From: a virus
Strand: one strand, 5' to 3'
IMG/VR virus record: IMGVR_UViG_3300027091_000001
Location: 3,711-67,710 of that record
Length of the DNA stretch: 64,000 bases
A model generated the notes under the pieces. The model worked only from the letters and a program-made list of their open reading frames with translations. It was not told the DNA's origin and ran no database searches. Within the stretch, counting starts at the first letter, position 1. Each line of letters begins with the position of its first letter. The position numbers and the translations under genes were made by a program. This document shows, in pieces, positions 2,324 through 11,786 of the stretch.

Positions 2324-2581
2324 ATGTTAACGATAAACGAAATTAGAATCGGTCTCGAAGACCGGAAAATCTTGGTCGGGAGAGACCTTACAAACGGAAC
2401 CGAAATCAAGGCTTGCCTTGATTTGGACGAGGACATTGACAGCAACGAGGCAATCTGGATAAAGTGCCTTGAAGGAAATATCATCCAGTGGGGGAGCGTT
2501 GGCGTTACCTACTCGGAAGAGTTTGAAGGTTGTAGTTGGTTTACAAGCCCAGACTACATCTGGGAAACAATCAGCAAGTAA
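2324..2581 (+). CDS. hypothetical protein
   Basis: 85-aa ORF with RBS; N-terminus MLTINEIRI matches 59938 ORF (MYTINEIRI). Confidence 0.75.
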   Translation: MLTINEIRIGLEDRKILVGRDLTNGTEIKACLDLDEDIDSNEAIWIKCLEGNIIQWGSVGVTYSEEFEGCSWFTSPDYIWETISK

Positions 2582-2649
2582 AAAGATTCTCTAGACTCGT
2601 CACAAATTGAACGAGTCTAGAGAATGTATAAGTAAGAGAAGGAAAAACT

Positions 2650-3171
2650 ATGAACTATAACATTCCAGACATGACAACTTGGAACCGCCACCAGAAACTC
2701 CACTGGCATATGGTAAATCCAGAAATGAGCAGTTACATTCAAAGCAAAACGGCTGTATTGGAGTACATTGCACTCAAAGGGTGGTTTGTCAATGAAGAAG
2801 AAAATCGTCACATTCTGGTGAACATCATTGACGATGCGACGTTTGCTTTCAATAACTTCGTCAACTATCTTGAAAACGCTCATCCAACAGATGACTTCAA
2901 TGAGCGTGATAGTCTACTTGAAAAATGTGCATATCCAAAGGCACTTTTTGAAGAGGCTTTTGAAAACATCTGTGCTACGTTCTTTGTGCGACGTGGTGAG
3001 TTTCCAGATGAAACCCTTGGCATCACGCTGAGTGACTTACACCTGAACTTCAAATACACGTCTCAGGATGACCCGTACGACCCTCAGTGGTGGGAGTTTA
3101 GGTTCATTGACGAATACCTAAACTCCAGCGTCTGGATTGGTGAAAACCCATTCAGTCCAGAGTCGGGCTAA
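2650..3171 (+). CDS. hypothetical protein
   Basis: 173-aa ORF, AGAAGGA RBS. Confidence 0.75.
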   Translation: MNYNIPDMTTWNRHQKLHWHMVNPEMSSYIQSKTAVLEYIALKGWFVNEEENRHILVNIIDDATFAFNNFVNYLENAHPTDDFNERDSLLEKCAYPKALFEEAFENICATFFVRRGEFPDETLGITLSDLHLNFKYTSQDDPYDPQWWEFRFIDEYLNSSVWIGENPFSPESG

Positions 3172-3185
3172 AAGGAGCAACTGGC

Positions 3186-3296
3186 ATGATATTCATTACA
3201 TTGATAACAACCCTCACCTTGGGCATTCTGGGGCTTACTGGGTGGTTTTTTGACGCAATCAGTCAATACCAAGACAAGATAGACAGAGGAGAATAA
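3186..3296 (+). CDS. 36-aa single-pass membrane peptide
   Basis: GGAG RBS; MIFITLITTLTLGILGLTGWFFDAISQYQDKIDRGE. Confidence 0.55.
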   Translation: MIFITLITTLTLGILGLTGWFFDAISQYQDKIDRGE

Positions 3297-3335
3297 GTGG
3301 CTCAAAAACAAATTGAAAAATAAACAAAACTACTG

Positions 3336-3364
3336 TTGACATCTGCTTTTTTATGTTGTAATGT
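3336..3364 (+). promoter_or_regulatory. sigma70-type promoter of ncRNA 1a
   Basis: TTGACA-17-TAATGT, 6 nt before GTGGTTGAGA. Confidence 0.75.
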
Positions 3365-3370
3365 ATATAC

Positions 3371-3590
3371 GTGGTTGAGATGAACGCCTCCTCTCAATCT
3401 AGTTCTGAAACTTGGAAGCGATAGCACAGAACTCTAAGAGTTAGAAGGTAGGGTGGAAGGGCTCACCAGTATTGAAAAATTCTGGTCTGGGATTCGAATA
3501 CCAGCACACCACGGACTAACAAAAAGAGCGAGCAATCGGGCTCGTAACTGAGGCAGGGTAGTCTCCCGACTGGGCTCGGCTACCCACAAA
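3371..3590 (+). ncRNA. putative structured ncRNA, family 1 copy a (tRNA-elbow-like)
   Basis: Own promoter, no ORF, serial hairpins, TTCGA loop, homologous to 6247..6005 with compensatory changes. Confidence 0.7.
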
Positions 3591-3610
3591 AAATATATTT
3601 GAAAAAGTAC

Positions 3611-3655
3611 TTGACAACTAAGTAAAGAGTGAACTATACTCTATTCAGTCAAGTT
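3611..3655 (+). promoter_or_regulatory. island promoter (TCAAGTT class)
   Basis: TTGACA-18-TATACT-8-TCAAGTT. Confidence 0.85.
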
Positions 3656-3860
3656 ACTTGATAGGCTGAAATGCCAAACTCCACCAGCGTGACCCGGTGG
3701 TATGCGAGCCCGAGCGAGATAGGGCAAATGAACTCGCTGTCGTAGGGATAGTAAAAAGTATTCTAAATAGAGTCACTTACCAAATGTATGGGAATAGGCT
3801 GGGAAGTAGGACATACACGAAGTGTCCAGCCGTGAAATAGCCCTGATGGTAAGTGAATAA
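3645..3860 (+). ncRNA. putative structured ncRNA carrying family 2 motif copy a (3773..3856)
   Basis: Promoter, no RBS/ORF; stems ttcagtc/ggctgaa, ccacc/ggtgg, agcgag/ctcgct, tcacttacca/tggtaagtga. Confidence 0.65.
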
Positions 3861-3889
3861 TGTTTTACTAAAAATAGTTCACAAAGTAC

Positions 3890-3933
3890 TTGACAAGTGC
3901 GTAAACAGTAACCTATACTCTGTACAACAAGTT
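3890..3933 (+). promoter_or_regulatory. island promoter (CAAGTT class)
   Basis: TTGACA-18-TATACT then CAAGTTGGAAGGAGG. Confidence 0.85.
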
Positions 3934-4200
3934 GGAAGGAGGTTGTAATGCAAATAGTTCAATATGGTGGTGGGGTCGTAAAGAGAACCTGACCCCACTT
4001 AATGATTCGTAAACCGATAGCGGATATTGCACCGCAAAGACACTCTGACAAGAGTGCACCATACCGGAGTTGGAATAGACTGGGGAAGTAGGACATACAC
4101 GAAATATCCCAGTCGTGAAATAGCCAACACGGTAGGTCAAAGATAAAAATCAGTGAGTGTGTCACTGAATACGCCAATCCGAACGAGGGTTGGTTTTTTT
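3925..4200 (+). ncRNA. putative structured ncRNA carrying family 2 motif copy b (4061..4135)
   Basis: Multibranch domain tatggtg/caccata enclosing gtggggtc/gaccccac, gcgg/ccgc, cactct/agagtg; ends in terminator ccaatcc/gggttgg+T7. Confidence 0.65.
3948..3992 (+). CDS. 14-aa leader peptide MQIVQYGGGVVKRT
   Basis: GGAGG RBS 5 nt before ATG; overlaps 5' stems of the RNA. Confidence 0.4.
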   Translation: MQIVQYGGGVVKRT

Positions 4201-4258
4201 GTATTTGAACTTGCGAGTGAGTCAGGTGCTGATAAAGTCCTATTGAATCTCCTTCACT

Positions 4259-4297
4259 GAAGCCCCACGTTATCTCCTCAACGTGGGGCTTCTTTTA
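4259..4297. terminator. strong hairpin/terminator at Mom-like gene end
   Basis: gaagccccacgtt-atctcctc-aacgtggggcttc followed by tttt. Confidence 0.75.
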
Positions 4298-5278
4298 TTC
4301 ACCACGAACTGAAGGATATGGATACGCCTTATTCGCCTCTAGGAACCTCGTACGGAGGCGTTTTGTCTCAACCTTGGACTTACCTAGCACATAGGCATAC
4401 TTATGTTTCTTTGGAGCCGACACTGGAGTTGCGATTGACTGCTTTTGGCGAGACAGGGCACGAAGGCTACTCTCAATGGATGACGGCACTCGAGTCCAGT
4501 CGATACAGCCATCATGAATCCAGTTGTCATCCCACTTGATTCCAATTTCACGGGCATAGAGTCTGTACGCTGACTTCTGTCTGAAGAACCTGTCTGACAC
4601 TATCTTCCCGGTGTAAGGATTGATGTACCTCGTAGATGCTCCAAACCGATTACCAAGGTAGTAGAAGTTACAGGCTTGATAAATCGTGCCTAACTCTTTA
4701 GCGGCAGGGTCGGAATAAGCGGTGAACAGCCTGAACTCGGTGTTGGTGACCATGTCTCGGATGCACCACATCATCATCCGGCTGGCTAGGCACTTTGGTG
4801 ACCACGACACACACGCTCCTCGGCTGATGAGACGCTCAATCCGTGTGTCATCCCCAAGCATCTTAGACATAGCGTTCGGGAGATTCATCAAAATCACCCC
4901 CGCAAGGATATGCCGCCCAAACAACCCCTGACTAGGGTCGAAGTAGTACGCCCCATACCAGTGCGTCGTGTACTGAGAGATTGTCCCAAGCCACTCATGC
5001 CTCTTGATGAACTCAATCGCCTGTTCCTTCTCCTCATCAGTCCGCATTAGCCTGAACGTAAAGTCGCTAACAGCCATTGCCGCTATGATTTCAGGCTTGA
5101 TGCCAGACAAGGCTATGTCTTCAGTAAGATTGTTGTGTCTGATGTCGTATTGCCAGCAGTGAGGCTTGTCGTAAGAGCGGAGCGATGCTTCATCTAAGTC
5201 CGAATTCACAACAAGGATAGGCTCATTACTGACGGCACACTGAGGGATGTCAAAGAGTGGGAGTTGGATGTTGCTCAT
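4295..5278 (-). CDS. Mom-like GNAT-fold DNA base-modification protein
   Basis: IERLISRGAC...FTAYSDPAAKELGTIYQACNFYYLG and C-terminal KKHKYAYVLG resemble the Mu Mom family signature (xxYxD...GxIYQAxNFxYxG). Confidence 0.7.
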   Translation of the reverse strand: MSNIQLPLFDIPQCAVSNEPILVVNSDLDEASLRSYDKPHCWQYDIRHNNLTEDIALSGIKPEIIAAMAVSDFTFRLMRTDEEKEQAIEFIKRHEWLGTISQYTTHWYGAYYFDPSQGLFGRHILAGVILMNLPNAMSKMLGDDTRIERLISRGACVSWSPKCLASRMMMWCIRDMVTNTEFRLFTAYSDPAAKELGTIYQACNFYYLGNRFGASTRYINPYTGKIVSDRFFRQKSAYRLYAREIGIKWDDNWIHDGCIDWTRVPSSIESSLRALSRQKQSIATPVSAPKKHKYAYVLGKSKVETKRLRTRFLEANKAYPYPSVRGE

Positions 5279-5280
5279 AT

Positions 5281-5306
5281 AAAGAAAAACCCCGCATGAA
5301 GCGGGG
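5281..5306 (-). terminator. intrinsic terminator directly upstream of Mom-like start codon
   Basis: minus strand ccccgc-ttcat-gcgggg-tttttcttt then atATG. Confidence 0.7.
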
Positions 5307-5332
5307 TACGGAAAACACTCCGTTAGAGAAGA

Positions 5333-5698
5333 CTAGTCATCATTCTGGAGCCAAACCCAAGGCAAGTCAATACGATTCTTCATGTAATCGAGGTCGTAGT
5401 CATCAGGCTTAGACTCAAAGAATTCAAGAATGCCGCCATAGTGCAATAGGCAAGCCCCGCACAGTGCTGTTACATCCTCGCCAAGGAAGACGTTGCATCC
5501 TTGACAACGAGAGTCGTACACGCCAGCGGTGTTTAGTGCCTTTGCAATTGCGTCGTCAACAACTCCGCTACAGTCCAACTCCACGTCGTACAACTCGTAA
5601 ACCTCGGCTTTTTGAGCCCGAGTCATGTACATTGTTGCGAGAGCAAGCGAAAATCCATGTTGCCGCTCTTCATATAAAATGTCTTCATCTGTAATCAT
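5333..5698 (-). CDS. hypothetical protein with CxxC..CxxC
   Basis: 121-aa ORF, AGGAG RBS; CQGC and CGAC motifs. Confidence 0.7.
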   Translation of the reverse strand: MITDEDILYEERQHGFSLALATMYMTRAQKAEVYELYDVELDCSGVVDDAIAKALNTAGVYDSRCQGCNVFLGEDVTALCGACLLHYGGILEFFESKPDDYDLDYMKNRIDLPWVWLQNDD

Positions 5699-5704
5699 TG
5701 GAAT

Positions 5705-6000
5705 CTCCTATGGTGGGAAGTATGGCTGGCTGGATTTCAACCAGTACGGAACACAAGGGCAGTTCTTTCGATGGTCTCTACCTCCGATGGTACTCGTGTC
5801 TCGTGAGAGAGCATCGTACCCAACCTACACTTCTTACTTGGATAGATTGTCGGATTTGCGTCAATCATCTCCAAGGTTTCAGTAAAAGATTGTGGATTGA
5901 ACCACTCCAAGGTTGCTACCCTTATTTGAATCTCACAATAGATTCTAGCCGTTGTGGTCTTTTACTGGAGCAGGGATGCCTCCCTACATCAAAGTCGTAC
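5705..6000 (-). ncRNA. putative structured non-coding RNA / long leader
   Basis: Minus-strand stems cagtaaaaga/tcttttactg enclosing three hairpins incl. gtgg-ttcaat-ccac; cttgga/tccaag; ctgg-ttgaaat-ccag; no credible ORF. Confidence 0.5.
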
Positions 6001-6004
6001 TAGG

Positions 6005-6247
6005 TGACTGAGTTGAACCCCTTGGGGTAACTCAGTCGCTCCAGTCGTAAGCCCGATTGCTTACACTTTCGGCTTCGGGGTGGCGTGGAATCGAACCTAA
6101 CCGCATTCAGTCAACAAGCATTGTCAATCGGCTGGAGCCAGCGATTCAGACTGAATAAACCTTCACCTTACTAAGCCCAAGGGTACAGGAGACATTGTTC
6201 CAGCCTCTCAACCCGTGCGATTGAAACAGGAGTGTTATCTCAACCAC
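6005..6247 (-). ncRNA. putative structured ncRNA, family 1 copy b (tRNA-elbow-like)
   Basis: Starts GTGGTTGAGA 6 nt after -10; contains GGTTCGATTCC and GCAATCGGGC hairpin shared with 3371 copy. Confidence 0.7.
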
Positions 6248-6253
6248 AACAAG

Positions 6254-6282
6254 AGTATCGCACACAAAATTATCATTGTCAA
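6254..6282 (-). promoter_or_regulatory. sigma70-type promoter of ncRNA 1b
   Basis: TTGACA-17-GATACT. Confidence 0.8.
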
Positions 6283-6327
6283 TAGTATATGTTTAAAATA
6301 TATACACTATTATTATTTACAGAACAC

Positions 6328-6371
6328 TTGACAACAGTGTAAATGTGAGTCTATACTCTTTACATCAAGTT
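6328..6371 (+). promoter_or_regulatory. island promoter (TCAAGTT class)
   Basis: TTGACA-18-TATACT-7-TCAAGTT then GAAGAGG. Confidence 0.85.
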
Positions 6372-6388
6372 TGAAGAGGTAGAAACAA

Positions 6389-6649
6389 ATGAAGGCACTT
6401 ACAGCATCAGAGCAGTTCCTGCTCACAACCTTCTCCGGTTGGGGTTACACGTCAGATGACGTTCATGCGTCGTATTGCAGAATCCTGTCAACGACAACTT
6501 TCACCAAAGAGGACTGCATCCGTATGCAACAACTCCTCAATGTCCTTGAAGTATTCAAACTCGAGGAAGCCCGTGAAATCGAGGAGCGTGAAAACGCTCT
6601 TGCCTCTGAAGAAGGCACATATGTCTGGGATAGAGGGTTCGCAAAGTAA
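6389..6649 (+). CDS. hypothetical protein
   Basis: 86-aa ORF after promoter and RBS. Confidence 0.75.
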   Translation: MKALTASEQFLLTTFSGWGYTSDDVHASYCRILSTTTFTKEDCIRMQQLLNVLEVFKLEEAREIEERENALASEEGTYVWDRGFAK

Positions 6650-6900
6650 TGAAGTCTGAAATCCTTGATTCGATGAAAGCCGTGCTGATTGAGTACGGCT
6701 CACCTGAACTCAGTACGTCCTACCCAAACGTAGAACGACTGTTTGAAAGCATCAGAGTTTGGCAAAAAAAAACGGACAGTCAATCGATGCTTAAAATATT
6801 GTCTCAGTATTCTGGACGGAATACGCCACTTACTATACTGGAAGTACACGACATCCTCAGCCACATACGTCGCTGGTACAGAGAAGAATCTAGCAAATGA
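6649..6900 (+). CDS. hypothetical protein
   Basis: TAATG coupling to upstream ORF. Confidence 0.7.
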   Translation: MKSEILDSMKAVLIEYGSPELSTSYPNVERLFESIRVWQKKTDSQSMLKILSQYSGRNTPLTILEVHDILSHIRRWYREESSK

Positions 6901-7115
6901 ATACTTATCGTCTCAAGTTCCTAAGTCTCCTCAGTGAGGCTCTAGCGAGCCCACAATGGCATCCATTCAAGGGTGAATCATGTGAGGTTGATTGCCTTGG
7001 CTACAACGGCTGGGCTCCGACCTGTTATTGTGGAACCTACCGTTGTGAGATGTCTCCACAGGGTGAACTTGAAACAATGACCCTGTTCGTACAGGCACTA
7101 ATCAAAGTCAAATAA
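6897..7115 (+). CDS. hypothetical Cys-containing protein
   Basis: ATGA coupling; CYCGTYRC. Confidence 0.7.
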   Translation: MNTYRLKFLSLLSEALASPQWHPFKGESCEVDCLGYNGWAPTCYCGTYRCEMSPQGELETMTLFVQALIKVK

Positions 7116-7143
7116 GTATTTTTAAAAATAGTTTAATTTGCTA

Positions 7144-7189
7144 TTGACATAGAGTATATCGTTGCCTATACTCTATTCAGTCAAGTTCG
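7144..7189 (+). promoter_or_regulatory. island promoter (TCAAGTT class)
   Basis: TTGACA-17-TATACT-8-TCAAGTTCG. Confidence 0.85.
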
Positions 7190-7214
7190 CAATCAACCTT
7201 TGGAGGAAACAAAA

Positions 7215-7394
7215 ATGTTCACAGTCACTTTTTATACTTACTCACAAATCCTGAAGCAAGGCTTCAGCAACACAGAAGTCCACGATGACTTCTTCTCCAT
7301 CCGGATTAGGGCAATGGCCCTCAACCTTCAAGTTACGAAGGTAGTTGATGTGGAAGGCGACGAAGTCAGCCTTGACATGGTTTGGGGAAATTAA
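7215..7394 (+). CDS. hypothetical protein, paralog of 54131..54310
   Basis: MFTVTFYTYSQILKQGFSNTEVHDDFFSIRIRAMALNLQV...EVSLDMVWGN nearly identical to second copy. Confidence 0.8.
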   Translation: MFTVTFYTYSQILKQGFSNTEVHDDFFSIRIRAMALNLQVTKVVDVEGDEVSLDMVWGN

Positions 7395-7404
7395 GGAGAA
7401 TACG

Positions 7405-7662
7405 ATGACAAAAGTCATGAACCACTCGGAATACCAAGCCAAACTAATGACAGTGGAGTTCCACTCTCTAGAGTACATAGTCAAGGACTGTACCGCTGTT
7501 CTCGAAGCGTGGAAAGACCATCCAAATCACGGGTACTACTCGGACGAGATTCACTATTGTCTCGCTGAGATTCGGTATCGCAAAGACCCGAAAAACGCTC
7601 CACTCTGGTGGCGTAAAGCGATAAAGAAGTTGATGACCGAATCGGTCAGAGAGGAGGCATAA
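7405..7662 (+). CDS. hypothetical protein
   Basis: AAGGAG RBS, likely start MTKVMNH. Confidence 0.7.
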   Translation: MTKVMNHSEYQAKLMTVEFHSLEYIVKDCTAVLEAWKDHPNHGYYSDEIHYCLAEIRYRKDPKNAPLWWRKAIKKLMTESVREEA

Positions 7663-8932: not shown

Positions 8933-9535
8933 ATGAGTTTACAGGCACGATTTGACCGCATTGAGATTGGTGACAGCACCCGTATAGGCGGGGTATACAT
9001 CAACACTGAGACAGGTGAGATAACAGGCACGGTAGATGGCTACATACCTGAGCATATCGAGACGGCTGACGACTTAGAAGTTTTCTTTGACCGAGTAAGC
9101 ACTAATCAGTACGAAGTTGACGCAATGAAGCGACGTTTGTCTGACACGGTAGCCCATATGAACGCTCTTATAGCGGATAAGCAAGCAACCATTGAGTACC
9201 TTATCGAGCGTTGGGGTGAAGAAGCCCGTGACGTAGCCAAGGCAAGCCTTGTAGAGGGTAAGACGTATCAAGGTATCCACGCCTCTATAGCATTCCGTAA
9301 GAAGAATGCATCCCTTAAGGTAACTGATGCGGATAAGTTTATGGAAACTGTTGGTAATGCTATACCTGACGCAGTGAAGGTAGTGCGTACACCGCTTATC
9401 AGTAAGTTACCTAGTCATATTGAGGCATTAGCCCTCATAAACGCTGAGTATGCGGAAAGCATTGGGTTGGCTGTACAACCAGCATCGGAAGTTGCAACGC
9501 TGAAGATAGGGGATTCAAAGATAGATGTCAGTTGA
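8933..9535 (+). CDS. Mu Gam-like host-nuclease inhibitor / DNA end-binding protein
   Basis: Coiled-coil N-half then EGKTYQGIHASIAFRKKNASLKV, resembling Gam/Gp157 families. Confidence 0.6.
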   Translation: MSLQARFDRIEIGDSTRIGGVYINTETGEITGTVDGYIPEHIETADDLEVFFDRVSTNQYEVDAMKRRLSDTVAHMNALIADKQATIEYLIERWGEEARDVAKASLVEGKTYQGIHASIAFRKKNASLKVTDADKFMETVGNAIPDAVKVVRTPLISKLPSHIEALALINAEYAESIGLAVQPASEVATLKIGDSKIDVS

Positions 9536-9968
9536 GAAGTTGGTTATAAGTGTTGAGGAGGGGGCTGTTGCTCCCTCCTACGCTACGTCTGGGTCGGCAG
9601 GGGCTGACTTACGAGCATTTACAGACAAACCTATACATCTGCTCAGCGGGTCAAAGGAAATCATCAACACTGGGATACGGATGAGAGTTCCTGAAGGATA
9701 CGAAGTCCAGATTCGCCCAAGGAGTGGATTAGCGGCAAACTATGGGATTACGGTTCTGAATAGTCCGGGGACGATTGACAGCGATTACCGTGGGGAAGTT
9801 CGAGTCATCTTGTTCAATCACGGGAAAGAAGGCAGGGTCATTCAGTCTGGGGATAAGATTGCACAGATGGTGCTTGCTCCTGTAACAAGGGCTGAGTTCG
9901 AGGTTGGCGATGTTGATGTGGACACTCAGCGTGGAACAGGCGGGTTCGGCTCAACGGGGATTCAGTAA
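9525..9968 (+). CDS. dut: trimeric dUTPase
   Basis: SAGADL, RPRSGLA, GTIDSDYRGEV, RGTGGFGSTG motifs. Confidence 0.97.
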   Translation: MSVEKLVISVEEGAVAPSYATSGSAGADLRAFTDKPIHLLSGSKEIINTGIRMRVPEGYEVQIRPRSGLAANYGITVLNSPGTIDSDYRGEVRVILFNHGKEGRVIQSGDKIAQMVLAPVTRAEFEVGDVDVDTQRGTGGFGSTGIQ

Positions 9969-10612
9969 TGGCGAAAGCAACACTTATTGACATTACGACA
10001 AACGCTGAACATCAAATGATTTACTGTGCTCGGGTTTCGAATCCGTCGAATCAGTCAAACTATGAGACGGGCGGCAAGTTGTTGAAGTATTGTCTTGACA
10101 ACAGACACTGGAGCGTCTTTGAGATGGCGTACGCAACGGTTGAGGTAGAGACTGAGCGTGACATATCAGCACAGATACTGAGACATAGGTCGTTTTGCTT
10201 TCAGGAGTTCAGCACACGATACGCCAAGACGAGTAAAGCGAAACCGTTTGAGATACGACGGCAGGACATGAAGAATAGGCAATCGAGTCATGACGACTTG
10301 CCCGATGAAGTTCGTGACGAATACACGGAGCGAGTCAATGATGTCATTGATAATGCATGGGCACTGTACGAAGACATGATTCTGAATGGAGTTGCCCGTG
10401 AGACAGCACGTCGCATTTTGCCACTCTGTACACCTACGACGTTTTATATGAGCGGCAATGTACGGAGTTGGATTCACTACATCGAGGTGAGGACGCAACC
10501 CGGGACACAGAAAGAACATCGTGATGTTGCAATCGCAATAAGAGGGGCACTTGCACCTAAGTTGCCAATCATCGCTGAAGTTCTTGGATGGGAAAACAAT
10601 GGCACGACGTAA
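9968..10612 (+). CDS. thyX: flavin-dependent thymidylate synthase
   Basis: HWSVFE, QILRHRSFCFQEFSTRY, ETARRILP motifs. Confidence 0.97.
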   Translation: MAKATLIDITTNAEHQMIYCARVSNPSNQSNYETGGKLLKYCLDNRHWSVFEMAYATVEVETERDISAQILRHRSFCFQEFSTRYAKTSKAKPFEIRRQDMKNRQSSHDDLPDEVRDEYTERVNDVIDNAWALYEDMILNGVARETARRILPLCTPTTFYMSGNVRSWIHYIEVRTQPGTQKEHRDVAIAIRGALAPKLPIIAEVLGWENNGTT

Positions 10613-11786
10613 ACCGAAGGGCATCATAAACCTTGAACACGAAGACGTTGATGTTGCACTACTGAAGCATCACCCACGTAACGTGAACACAGGTGACATA
10701 GACACGATTGTGGAGTCTATCGAACGCAACGGATTCTTTGGCAATGTGATTGTGAACAAGAGAACGAGTCACATCCTTGCTGGGAACCATAGAGTGATGG
10801 CGGCAAAGCGGTTGGGATTCCTAAAGGTTCCAGTCACTTGGATTGATGTTGATGAGGATGAGGAGTTACGCATCCTTCTGGTTGACAACAGGACTGCTCG
10901 CCTTGGCTCTGATGATACTGAGGCACTGACCGCACTACTGGAAGAGTTGGCTGAGACGGATGCAGGACTGATTGGCACGGGGTACACGGACTACGACCTT
11001 GATGACCTCTTGCTGAGCCTTGAGGAGACTGAGGAAGAAGTCGAGAAGAAGCCAAAGGAACGGCAACCCAAGGAAGCCGATGAGGAAGATGTCGAGCCTT
11101 GGCATTTCGAACACTCTATATTCCCATCTGACAACGAGTTCGGTATTCCATTATTAGACGCAAAGTTGCAAGCCCGGACACTAACCCCACCCGTCGAGAA
11201 GTGGGGATACATCAGCCGTAAGGCAAAGTTCAACGGGACGTACCAGTTCTACACTGACGACTACAAGTTCTCAGCCGTATGGACTGACCCAACCGTCATA
11301 GTCAATTCAAAGTGCATTGCCTTCACCGAGTTGAACTACTCCACTCACAATCAAATGCCAATTGCCGTCTTCCTTTTTGACCTCTACAAGAAGCGGTGGA
11401 TTTCACGGTATTGCCAGTCTTACGGTATTCAAGTTTTCGTTGACATCAATGTTGAGGAAATCTTCTACCCATATTGCCTACTCGGAGTTCCTAAAGGATG
11501 GGGAGCATACTCAGTCAGAGCGAACGTAACAGCCGACAAGGGCACAGAAGTCCTACAAGGCACAGTAGACCTAGCCCGTGAACACGCTGGAGACACACCA
11601 CTACTCATGCTTGTCTTTGGAGGTGGAAAGGTAGCCCAAGAGTTTTGCCGCAATACACCCGGATTGTTCTGGATAGCCGAGAACAGTGAAGTCAAAACAG
11701 GGCGACGTAAGTCCGATATTCATAACGACCATAAAGCATCCGAGCAAGAGAATGAAGAGGCTACTGAAGAGGTAGACGAGGATTAG
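10599..11786 (+). CDS. ParB/Srx-like domain fused to DUF4417-like domain
   Basis: N-term ILAGNHRVMAAKRLG (ParB N); C-term QFYTDDYKFSAVWTDP...YKKRWISRYCQSYGIQV; likely start 10599. Confidence 0.75.
   Translation: MARRKPKGIINLEHEDVDVALLKHHPRNVNTGDIDTIVESIERNGFFGNVIVNKRTSHILAGNHRVMAAKRLGFLKVPVTWIDVDEDEELRILLVDNRTARLGSDDTEALTALLEELAETDAGLIGTGYTDYDLDDLLLSLEETEEEVEKKPKERQPKEADEEDVEPWHFEHSIFPSDNEFGIPLLDAKLQARTLTPPVEKWGYISRKAKFNGTYQFYTDDYKFSAVWTDPTVIVNSKCIAFTELNYSTHNQMPIAVFLFDLYKKRWISRYCQSYGIQVFVDINVEEIFYPYCLLGVPKGWGAYSVRANVTADKGTEVLQGTVDLAREHAGDTPLLMLVFGGGKVAQEFCRNTPGLFWIAENSEVKTGRRKSDIHNDHKASEQENEEATEEVDED

Follow-up and report, generated by a model that had tools for sequence, protein, structure and literature searches.

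The DNA without open reading frames (ORFs) that flanks a Mom-like gene and its small CxxC neighbor in a tailed-phage genome probably makes up an island of separate non-coding RNA genes rather than one system linked to Mom. The region lies in a stretch of 64,000 nucleotides (nt), hereafter the window, which covers bases 3711–67710 of the IMG/VR virus record IMGVR_UViG_3300027091_000001 (69,885 base pairs (bp), rated complete). ORF-free structured RNA DNA occupies 3371–4200 and 5700–6247, ~1.38 kb in total, and on comparative grounds it holds at least three unrelated structured RNA families, termed RNA1, motif-2 RNA, and RNA-X. A preliminary description of this DNA had reported about 1.4 kb of non-coding structured sequence, which was borne out by fold z-scores of −4.0 for 5700–6248 (minus strand) and −4.06 for 3926–4201, by covariation in all three families, and by the lack of a conserved ORF. 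It had further regarded the RNAs as one cluster, possibly combined with the Mom-like gene in an anti-defence module. Structured, promoter-driven RNAs in an early accessory region beside Mom were indeed found, but they fall into three families and probably do not make up one system.

Relatives of the region (contigs and records with L or G numbers below) were collected via the Mom protein, the invariant loop of motif 2, and the invariant core of the minus-strand RNA. The identity of their Mom proteins to that of the window was 98% in L145/146 and L147, 90% in L137, 83% in L158 and L155/156, 80% in L138, 72% in L142, and 71% in L139/140. For each RNA family, the percentage of alignment cells paired at the true partners was compared with that obtained when the partners were slid along the alignment.

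RNA-X gave the most general result and, by sequence comparison, belongs to a family spread among uncultured phages. Its 21-base core, CGGAGGnnGAGACCAUCGAAAGA, was found in 14 further IMG/VR contigs (L162–L175) of 8.7–316 kb. There, RNA-X has its own promoter, with a −35 box of the TTGACA or TTGCAA type and the −10 box TAATAT, followed in several contigs by an intrinsic terminator. The fetched flanks of all 14 contigs contained neither a Mom nor a CxxC gene, whereas tRNA genes were located within a few kb of RNA-X in five of the 14 loci. The RNA opens with a 5′ hairpin, after which come the four-way junction domain M3, a long hairpin, and M4, a clover-leaf-shaped domain that terminates in a CUGG-UUGAAAU-CCAG hairpin in the window. 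Across 16 distinct sequences, 96.8% of the cells were paired, versus 33%–46% after sliding, and 29 of the 65 pairs showed compensatory changes. We defined the family by the invariant core, a junction domain with a GUAGCAA loop, and the terminal hairpin CUGG-UUGAAnU-CCAG; the window RNA-X has all of these and aligns over its full length with the 15 other distinct sequences. In the window its own promoter and terminator are missing, and the RNA continues directly into the CxxC ribosome-binding site. The segment 5992–5724 had earlier been described as additional clover-leaf and hairpin domains; it is structured, as stated, but is actually a homolog of a stand-alone RNA gene. No open frame was kept on either strand among the RNA-X homologs, the stand-alone copies had no Rfam match even though the same search detected the tRNAs of L175, and RNA-X had no match among GenBank phages. 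A scan with a 25-mer from M3 found nothing.

Two other readings of the RNA-X segment were tried and rejected. The clover leaf at 5868–5980 was considered as a tRNA(Ala) mimic. Its "anticodon-like" loop, GUAGCAA, may pair with an upstream GCUA, which is in agreement with a compensatory change from U-A to G-C in L138, whereas the loop was left unpaired in the 16-sequence fold; in relatives a GNRA hairpin replaces the T-like arm of M3 (GUAA in L156). The pairing option and this replacement argue that M3 is not a tRNA mimic. An antisense ORF of 101 amino acids (aa; 5698–6003, plus strand) was also considered. Its tblastn matches came from conserved DNA only, and the frame was not kept open in homologs. 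In several phages a conserved ORF of 133–156 aa, with a C-terminus like GWKLVKEFLP and no Pfam family, was located directly 5′ of stand-alone RNA-X (L163:1487–1957, L168:3634–4062, L169:8823–9278, and L172:562–963), and the −35 box of RNA-X overlaps the end of this ORF.

Judged by these distributions, the RNAs appear to be INDEPENDENCE from Mom, because RNA-X occurs in 14 contigs without Mom or CxxC and distant Mom genes lack RNA1 and motif 2. No RNA1 and no motif 2 was present within ~4 kb of 27 Mom genes at 51%–63% identity, nor of the Mom gene of L142. These distant loci had neither ORF-free flanks nor a CxxC gene; ARAGORN found no tRNA(Gly) there, and a search of 17 of the loci gave no Rfam family. 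The sole tRNAs beside distant Mom genes were a six-gene array without tRNA-Gly in L036. An apparent gap of 1.9 kb beside Mom in L035 was actually a 706-aa helicase-like ORF. Together with the mosaic arrangements described below, these observations speak against the proposed combination of Mom and RNAs in one module. Occurrence of the RNAs independently of Mom-like genes had been named beforehand as the outcome that would count against such a link, and this is what was found for RNA-X.

Presence and absence were compared across the window, L137, L138, L139, L145, L147, L156, and G001. In the window, the minus strand carries a promoter, RNA1b, RNA-X, CxxC, and Mom in that order, and RNA1a, RNA2, and RNA3 converge on them from the plus strand. 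L145/146 has RNA1a and a single fused RNA2/3; RNA-X but no RNA1b lies upstream of CxxC in L145, and the L146 contig stops inside Mom. In L147, a new promoter drives two tandem motif-2 units, and no RNA1a is present on the visible side. L137 and L158 carry RNA1a and a different RNA2, with a short leader lacking both RNA1b and RNA-X. In L155/156, a promoter, RNA1, and a terminator stand alone after Mom, and RNA-X without RNA1b precedes CxxC. L138 has RNA1b and RNA-X before CxxC, but the plus-strand RNAs are absent and five small protein genes follow Mom. L139/140 has RNA1b, two motif-2 units, and only the M3 domain of RNA-X, and every one of these lies downstream of Mom. G001, whose capsid protein is 89% identical, has small ORFs after the homolog of a 173-aa gene, where the window has RNAs. 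The differing combinations, orders, and sides among such close relatives indicate that the RNAs behave as promoter-to-terminator cassettes in a variable early region. By sequence comparison, the region is a mosaic in which RNA families were gained, lost, fused, and moved independently. Weak precomputed matches to Tad2-like proteins (PF11195), an anti-Thoeris family, were seen for small early ORFs at L137:910–1158 and L138:6201–6416; no Tad2-like match was found for the small early ORFs of the window itself.

The RNA1 family has two paralogous copies in the window, RNA1a and RNA1b. The RNA is ~220 nt long, and both copies begin with GUGGYUGAG ~6 nt past the −10 box. RNA1a is composed of a 5′ hairpin with CCUCC in its loop, H2 (loop UGGAA), a central three-way domain, H4 (loop AAUCGG), and a nested H5. 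The central domain of RNA1b carries a long branched insertion, which is missing in the L138 and L139 homologs. Homologs of the RNA1a type were found in L009, L137, L145/146, L155/156, and L158, and those of the RNA1b type in L138 and L139. In the alignment of six sequences (A6), 92.9% of the cells were paired versus 34%–44% after sliding, with nine compensatory pairs, chiefly in H2, H4, and H5. The central domain contains a T-arm-like hairpin, which takes the perfect form CUGGG-UUCAAGC-CCCAG in L009, and the family has an invariant GGGUGG element. The closing helix can be drawn either between the 5′ GUGGU and ACCAC (P1) or as an internal GGUG/CACC helix, neither of which covaries. CUCC is present in the H1 loop of every copy, and this loop may form a pseudoknot with the J4/5 linker, the paired strands being GCCUC/GAGGC in the window phage, CACUC/GAGUG in L009, and CUCC/GGAG in the 1b copies. 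Reading of the sequences gave two compensatory changes for this pairing between the window and L009, and the column count of A6 backs it only in part (alignment gap). Pattern scans for RNA1 returned chance matches in coding DNA and the L009 record only, and the RNA1 model (R2) had no match in 50 related viral records. The heptamer GUGGUUG, with which RNA1a and RNA1b start (window 3371 and 6247), also occurs in the motif-2 transcript of L147 (L147:2271, GUGUGGUUGAGG) and forms the 5′ strand of the domain-2 closing helix of RNA-X in most homologs (window ~5826). It may be a signal for processing or initiation that these RNAs have in common, or else a scar left by recombination.

Motif-2 RNA is ~135 nt long. 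Two copies were identified in the window with the motif-2 model (R1), and L139 and L147 each have two tandem units. In the motif-2 alignment (A5), three nested helices had 91% of their cells paired versus 30%–40% after sliding, with 10 compensatory pairs. The helices enclose the invariant single strands AAUA and GUGAAAUAG and a loop of ~20 nt whose 17-nt core is invariant in all copies. No site complementary to the loop with three or fewer mismatches was found in the phage genome, and an exact complement of the 17-nt core was absent from 185,579 species genomes. A scan of viral contigs for the loop found nothing, and species genomes gave chance coding matches only. The 5′ part of RNA2 is common to the window, L137, and L009, and a different 3′ module follows it in L137 and L009. 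The alternative RNA2, located on the minus strand at L009:1040–1461, L137:5090–5470, and L158:3740–4090, is a lineage-specific RNA built from a repeated hairpin module, in which GGG-UGGRAUU-CCC precedes AAACU and an ACUCCU/AGGAGU stem; in L137 a 48-aa ORF closes it, and a stop occurs early in the L158 copy. RNA3 has at its 5′ end a 14-codon ORF (MQIVQYGGGVVKRT; 3948–3992, plus strand) with a strong GGAAGGAGG ribosome-binding site before it, and this ORF was not conserved in the L139 or L147 units.

All three families are non-coding, none is a tRNA or tmRNA, and none belongs to Rfam. No ORF of more than 50 aa was found on the transcribed strands of the RNA regions, the short ORFs were not kept in relatives, and the indels were not multiples of three. 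ARAGORN with default settings detected no tRNA or tmRNA in the window; when relaxed to 80% (ps80), it made four poor calls, two of them inside a promoter or an ORF. Rfam 15 at E ≤ 10, including tRNA (RF00005), tmRNA, T-box, ROOL, GOLLD, Y-RNA-like RNAs, riboswitches, and ribozymes, gave nothing in 3360–4210 or 5690–6260. Its sole match at E ≤ 1 within 2500–7500 was a chance snoRNA at 7396–7468, outside the flagged interval. As a positive control, RF00005 detected five tRNAs in L175. Four T-loop-like hairpins were counted in the RNA regions versus 0.56 expected, an excess of approximately seven-fold (Poisson P = 0.0025).

Promoter-like sites were enriched in 2500–7500, with 15 versus 7.2 ± 2.7 in shuffled sequences. 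Four strong promoters had been predicted for the RNAs (Table 1). Those at 3611, 3890, and 6282 were recovered in the consensus scan. The site at 3336 has a perfect −35 but a weak −10 box (TAATGT) and is therefore missing from the scan list; it was recovered by conservation, as its −35, a TAAnnT −10, and the distance to the GTGG of the RNA 5′ end are kept in L009, L137, and L155. The 3611 promoter is a member of a genome-wide promoter repeat family, and the 6282 promoter is conserved in L138 and L139 with a fixed distance to GTGG. The three predicted hairpin terminators were likewise found. The bidirectional one is conserved in L009, L137, L155, and L158, whereas the hairpin before the Mom start codon is missing in L139, where CxxC and Mom are 6 nt apart.

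Table 1. Features of the RNA region and the CxxC-Mom operon (window coordinates)
Feature	Position	Strand	Basis or description
RNA1a promoter	3336..3364	+	TTGACA, 17 nt, TAATGT; read from sequence
RNA1a	3371..3592	+	R2, 228 bits
RNA2 promoter	3611..3640	+	TTGACA-N18-TATACT, 11/12 matches
RNA2	3647..3869	+	5′ part with GGC-UGAAAU-GCC hairpin; 3′ part is motif-2 unit 1
Motif-2 unit 1	3736–3868	+	R1, 109 bits
RNA3 promoter	3890..3919	+	TTGACA-N18-TATACT, 11/12 matches
RNA3	3926..4200	+	Motif-2 unit 2, a hairpin, intrinsic terminator
Motif-2 unit 2	4014–4151	+	R1, 154.5 bits
RNA3 intrinsic terminator	4173–4200	+	Hairpin (4173–4194) with T-run
Bidirectional terminator hairpin between RNA cluster and Mom-like 3′ end	4259..4292	both	13-bp stem with T-run
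Mom-family GNAT gene, 327 aa	4295..5278	−	Pfam PF25680
Terminator-like hairpin between CxxC ORF and Mom start codon	5289..5307	−	Hairpin scan and sequence
CxxC...CxxC protein gene, 121 aa	5333..5698	−	Upstream of Mom, co-transcribed
RNA-X	5724..5992	−	Two-domain RNA, ~270 nt
RNA1b, paralog of RNA1a	6000..6247	−	R2, 173 bits
RNA1b promoter	6254..6282	−	TTGACA-N17-GATACT, TG in front, 10/12 matches

The gene toward which the RNAs converge had been called Mom-like, and by sequence and by the fold of a structural model it is a genuine Mom-family member. Its product matched PF25680 with an E value of 1.7e-10 (41.3 bits, cut-off 27.1) and PHROG 1384, "Mom-like", with an E value of 1.5e-11. In a Foldseek search with the AF2 model (pLDDT 80.2), the best PDB match was Mu Mom (8bv8_A, E = 3e-7, TM by target 0.54–0.63), which outranked generic GNATs; PDB searches with the protein sequence or profile did not reach 8bv8, whereas the fold search did. 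Residues 1–29 are predicted to be disordered (pLDDT < 50), and more distant homologs align only from residue 22–36. The small CxxC protein had also been pointed out, and its ORF is conserved, lying upstream of Mom only in the close lineage. It matched no Pfam family at E ≤ 0.01 (Com included) and no PHROG family. As in the com-mom operon of phage Mu, a Mom-family GNAT follows a small protein with Cys pairs in one operon, and a hairpin lies just before the mom start. Unlike Mu Mom, for which the catalytic residues R111, S124, D149, and R151 and the product 6-NcmdA are described, the window enzyme has 327 aa with an N-terminal extension of ~80 aa, and the two are ~14% identical in a structural alignment. 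The CxxC protein differs from Com in that it matches no family; the analogy is limited to its Cys pairs and its place upstream of Mom.

Each unit is probably self-contained at root: a folded RNA behind a consensus sigma-70 promoter, closed in some relatives by a terminator of its own. Such cassettes would be shuffled within a hypervariable early region through recombination at the promoters that they share and at repeated motifs. In relatives, the same slots hold other RNA modules or small protein genes. Host RNA polymerase would transcribe the RNAs early, as suggested by the fact that their promoters belong to the TTGACA-N18-TATACT family of neighboring small early genes. The RNAs would accumulate as stable trans-acting molecules working via their invariant single-stranded loops and T-loop-like hairpins. 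Most likely they would act as decoys or sponges in takeover or counter-defence, binding and titrating an RNA or protein of the host, rather than through decoding or catalysis. In the window phage, RNA1b and RNA-X may additionally have been captured as a 550-nt 5′ leader of the CxxC-Mom mRNA.

Several observations weigh against this picture. RNA1 and motif 2 were found in one narrow lineage only, so these two may be tied to Mom, and every close relative with both flanks visible retains one or more RNA1 copies next to the operon. RNA-X meets the CxxC ribosome-binding site without a terminator in the window, L138, L145, and L156, and could act in cis there; a cis role of RNA1b and RNA-X is possible in the window phage but cannot be general. 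The decoy or sponge mode is inferred from context. The lack of a complement to the motif-2 loop core fits protein binding but points to no target.

The persistence of RNA1 raises the question of whether it could be a dedicated partner of the Mom-like enzyme. It might act like a tRNA and carry the aminoacyl group, once its 3′ end has been processed and CCA added, or it might be a scaffold or regulator that binds the tRNA co-substrate; either way, the phage would supply or control the donor for DNA aminoacylation. In each of the six arrangement types that show both flanks (window, L137, L138, L139, L145, and L156), at least one RNA1 lies no more than ~1 kb from the CxxC-Mom operon, while its side and neighbors change. 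The enzyme itself is Mom-like by Pfam and fold, and RNA1 has a T-arm-like hairpin beside the closing helix GUGGU/ACCAC together with the invariant GGGUGG. Mu Mom moves glycine from Gly-tRNA(Gly) to N6-adenine and probably recognizes mainly the acceptor end of the tRNA (Silva et al. 2026, PMC13219725). This chemistry makes it reasonable to ask whether tRNA-like RNAs close to the gene are relevant. We nevertheless consider such a partnership unlikely. The tRNA tests failed for RNA1 (ARAGORN by default and RF00005 at E ≤ 10), the acceptor-like helix does not covary, and the nucleotides past it vary by copy (G, C, and C; ACCU in L137), leaving no conserved CCA or discriminator. The identity elements of GlyRS (C2:G71, U73, and an NCC anticodon in a 7-nt loop) were absent when the sequences were read against textbook rules. 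Moreover, the 27 distant Mom genes and that of L142 have no adjacent RNA, tRNA (the L036 array excepted), or ORF-free gap, and all RNA1 contigs are of one lineage, so the adjacency may be inherited synteny. In a more specific form, the phage would encode RNA1 as an RNA cofactor for a tRNA-dependent DNA aminoacyltransferase of the Mom type. RNA1 would then either carry the aminoacyl group itself, as a minimal tRNA-like molecule, or capture a host tRNA by its elbow and acceptor end and present or withhold it. This has only a slim chance of being correct, yet it would explain why one RNA1 copy stays by the CxxC-Mom operon through each rearrangement.

That the minus-strand RNA1b and RNA-X (6247–5700) serve as a cis-acting 5′ leader controlling translation or termination of CxxC-Mom is rather unlikely, even if such control would parallel the way in which Mu tightly regulates mom after transcription. 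It is favored by the absence of a terminator between RNA-X and CxxC, with RNA-X stopping a few nt before the ribosome-binding site in the four phages named above; by an RNAalifold structure for the window and L138 in which a 5′ segment, AAUC..UCC, pairs with the ribosome-binding region GGAGAUU; and by the terminator-like hairpin before the Mom start codon, which lacks a Shine-Dalgarno sequence. Nevertheless, in 14 unrelated contexts RNA-X is a stand-alone gene that has a promoter and terminator of its own, L137 and L158 share the operon but have the short leader without RNA1b and RNA-X, the RNAs of L139 are on the opposite side of Mom, and the pairing of the ribosome-binding site is not backed by covariation. 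The RNAs might instead be base-pairing regulatory small RNAs (sRNAs) that target host or phage mRNAs via conserved loops, the seed candidates being the CCUCC/CUCC loop of RNA1, which is anti-Shine-Dalgarno-like and retained in all copies, and the ~20-nt invariant loop of motif 2. The loops are invariant while the flanking stems covary, as this would predict, but we find it quite improbable, since no complement to the motif-2 loop was found in the phage genome at three or fewer mismatches, nor an exact one to its core in the species genomes searched, the CUCC loop of RNA1 can pair intramolecularly with the downstream GGAG, GAGGC, or GAGUG, and a size of 135–270 nt with multi-helix junctions is atypical for seed-type sRNAs. 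A decayed tRNA array, another non-functional remnant, or a small-protein coding region would account for the T-arm-like hairpins, the four poor relaxed ARAGORN calls, and short ORFs such as that at 3948–3992. Compensatory changes in dozens of pairs, dedicated conserved promoters, and the lack of conservation of the ORFs stand against this, as do the possible GUAGCAA/GCUA pairing and the GUAA hairpin in place of the T-like arm in L156. It is largely refuted by the covariation, and we give it hardly any chance.

Phage RNA cassettes are a known kind, and the three RNA families described here are uncatalogued in Rfam 15. The RNAs rnaC and rnaD of T4 (species 1 and 2) are stable structured phage RNAs with tRNA-like features and host-type promoters, which sit inside the tRNA cluster and are processed with the tRNAs. 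Compared by description, not by sequence, they are alike in being phage-encoded structured RNAs among RNA genes. In contrast, there is no tRNA in the window, RNA1a, RNA2, RNA3, and RNA1b are each promoter-driven, and no Rfam similarity was found. ROOL (RF03087) and GOLLD (RF01998) are intricately folded phage or prophage RNAs, often near tRNAs, as RNA-X is in five of 14 loci, but there was no Rfam match at E ≤ 10 and RNA-X is far smaller. With tRNA, tmRNA, and T-box RNAs, the families share T-loop-like hairpins (UUCRA, UGGAA, and UUGAAAU) and clover-leaf-shaped junctions, and the GGGUGG element of RNA1 presumably resembles the T-box sequence; they differ in that the ARAGORN and Rfam tests failed and in having no decoding loop and no conserved CCA end. 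In organization they resemble phage morons, which are self-contained units between conserved genes, present or absent in close relatives. An own promoter and terminator were found for RNA1 in L155/156 and for RNA-X in L162–L175, and presence varied among the relatives compared above. Unlike morons, the cargo is structured RNA instead of protein, and the cassettes can fuse into longer transcripts (window 6247–5700).

The three families join a small list of phage RNAs with strong comparative support, and RNA-X, at ~270 nt and with 29 covarying pairs, is common to uncultured phages. The comparison also indicates that folded RNAs circulate like small protein genes, as plug-in cassettes in early accessory regions where anti-defence and takeover functions cluster. 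The most intriguing point left by the comparison is the persistent pairing of RNA1 with the Mom operon, which raises the biochemical question of whether the enzyme needs or responds to a phage RNA. Even if the Mom-like enzyme ignores RNA1, well-defined RNA genes with consensus E. coli-type promoters remain.

Further features of the record bear on its setting. It carries tailed-phage genes for terminase, portal, capsid, and tape-measure proteins, and the public runs containing it were sediment, marine, and freshwater metagenomes, with DNA in every case. GenBank phages had no nucleotide match to the region, and the nearest terminase relatives were less than 40% identical. A genome-wide Pfam survey of 60 ORFs found ThyX, dUTPase, an MT-A70 methylase, ParB-DUF4417, and YqaJ; potential RNA partners, namely RNA ligase, Ro/Rsr, RtcB, CCA-adding enzyme, reverse transcriptase, and integrase, were absent from it. 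Besides Mom, ThyX, dUTPase, the MT-A70 adenine methylase, and two ParB-N proteins (one of them the DUF4417 fusion) are encoded at 8933–11786 and elsewhere, and the window phage may have several DNA-modification functions.

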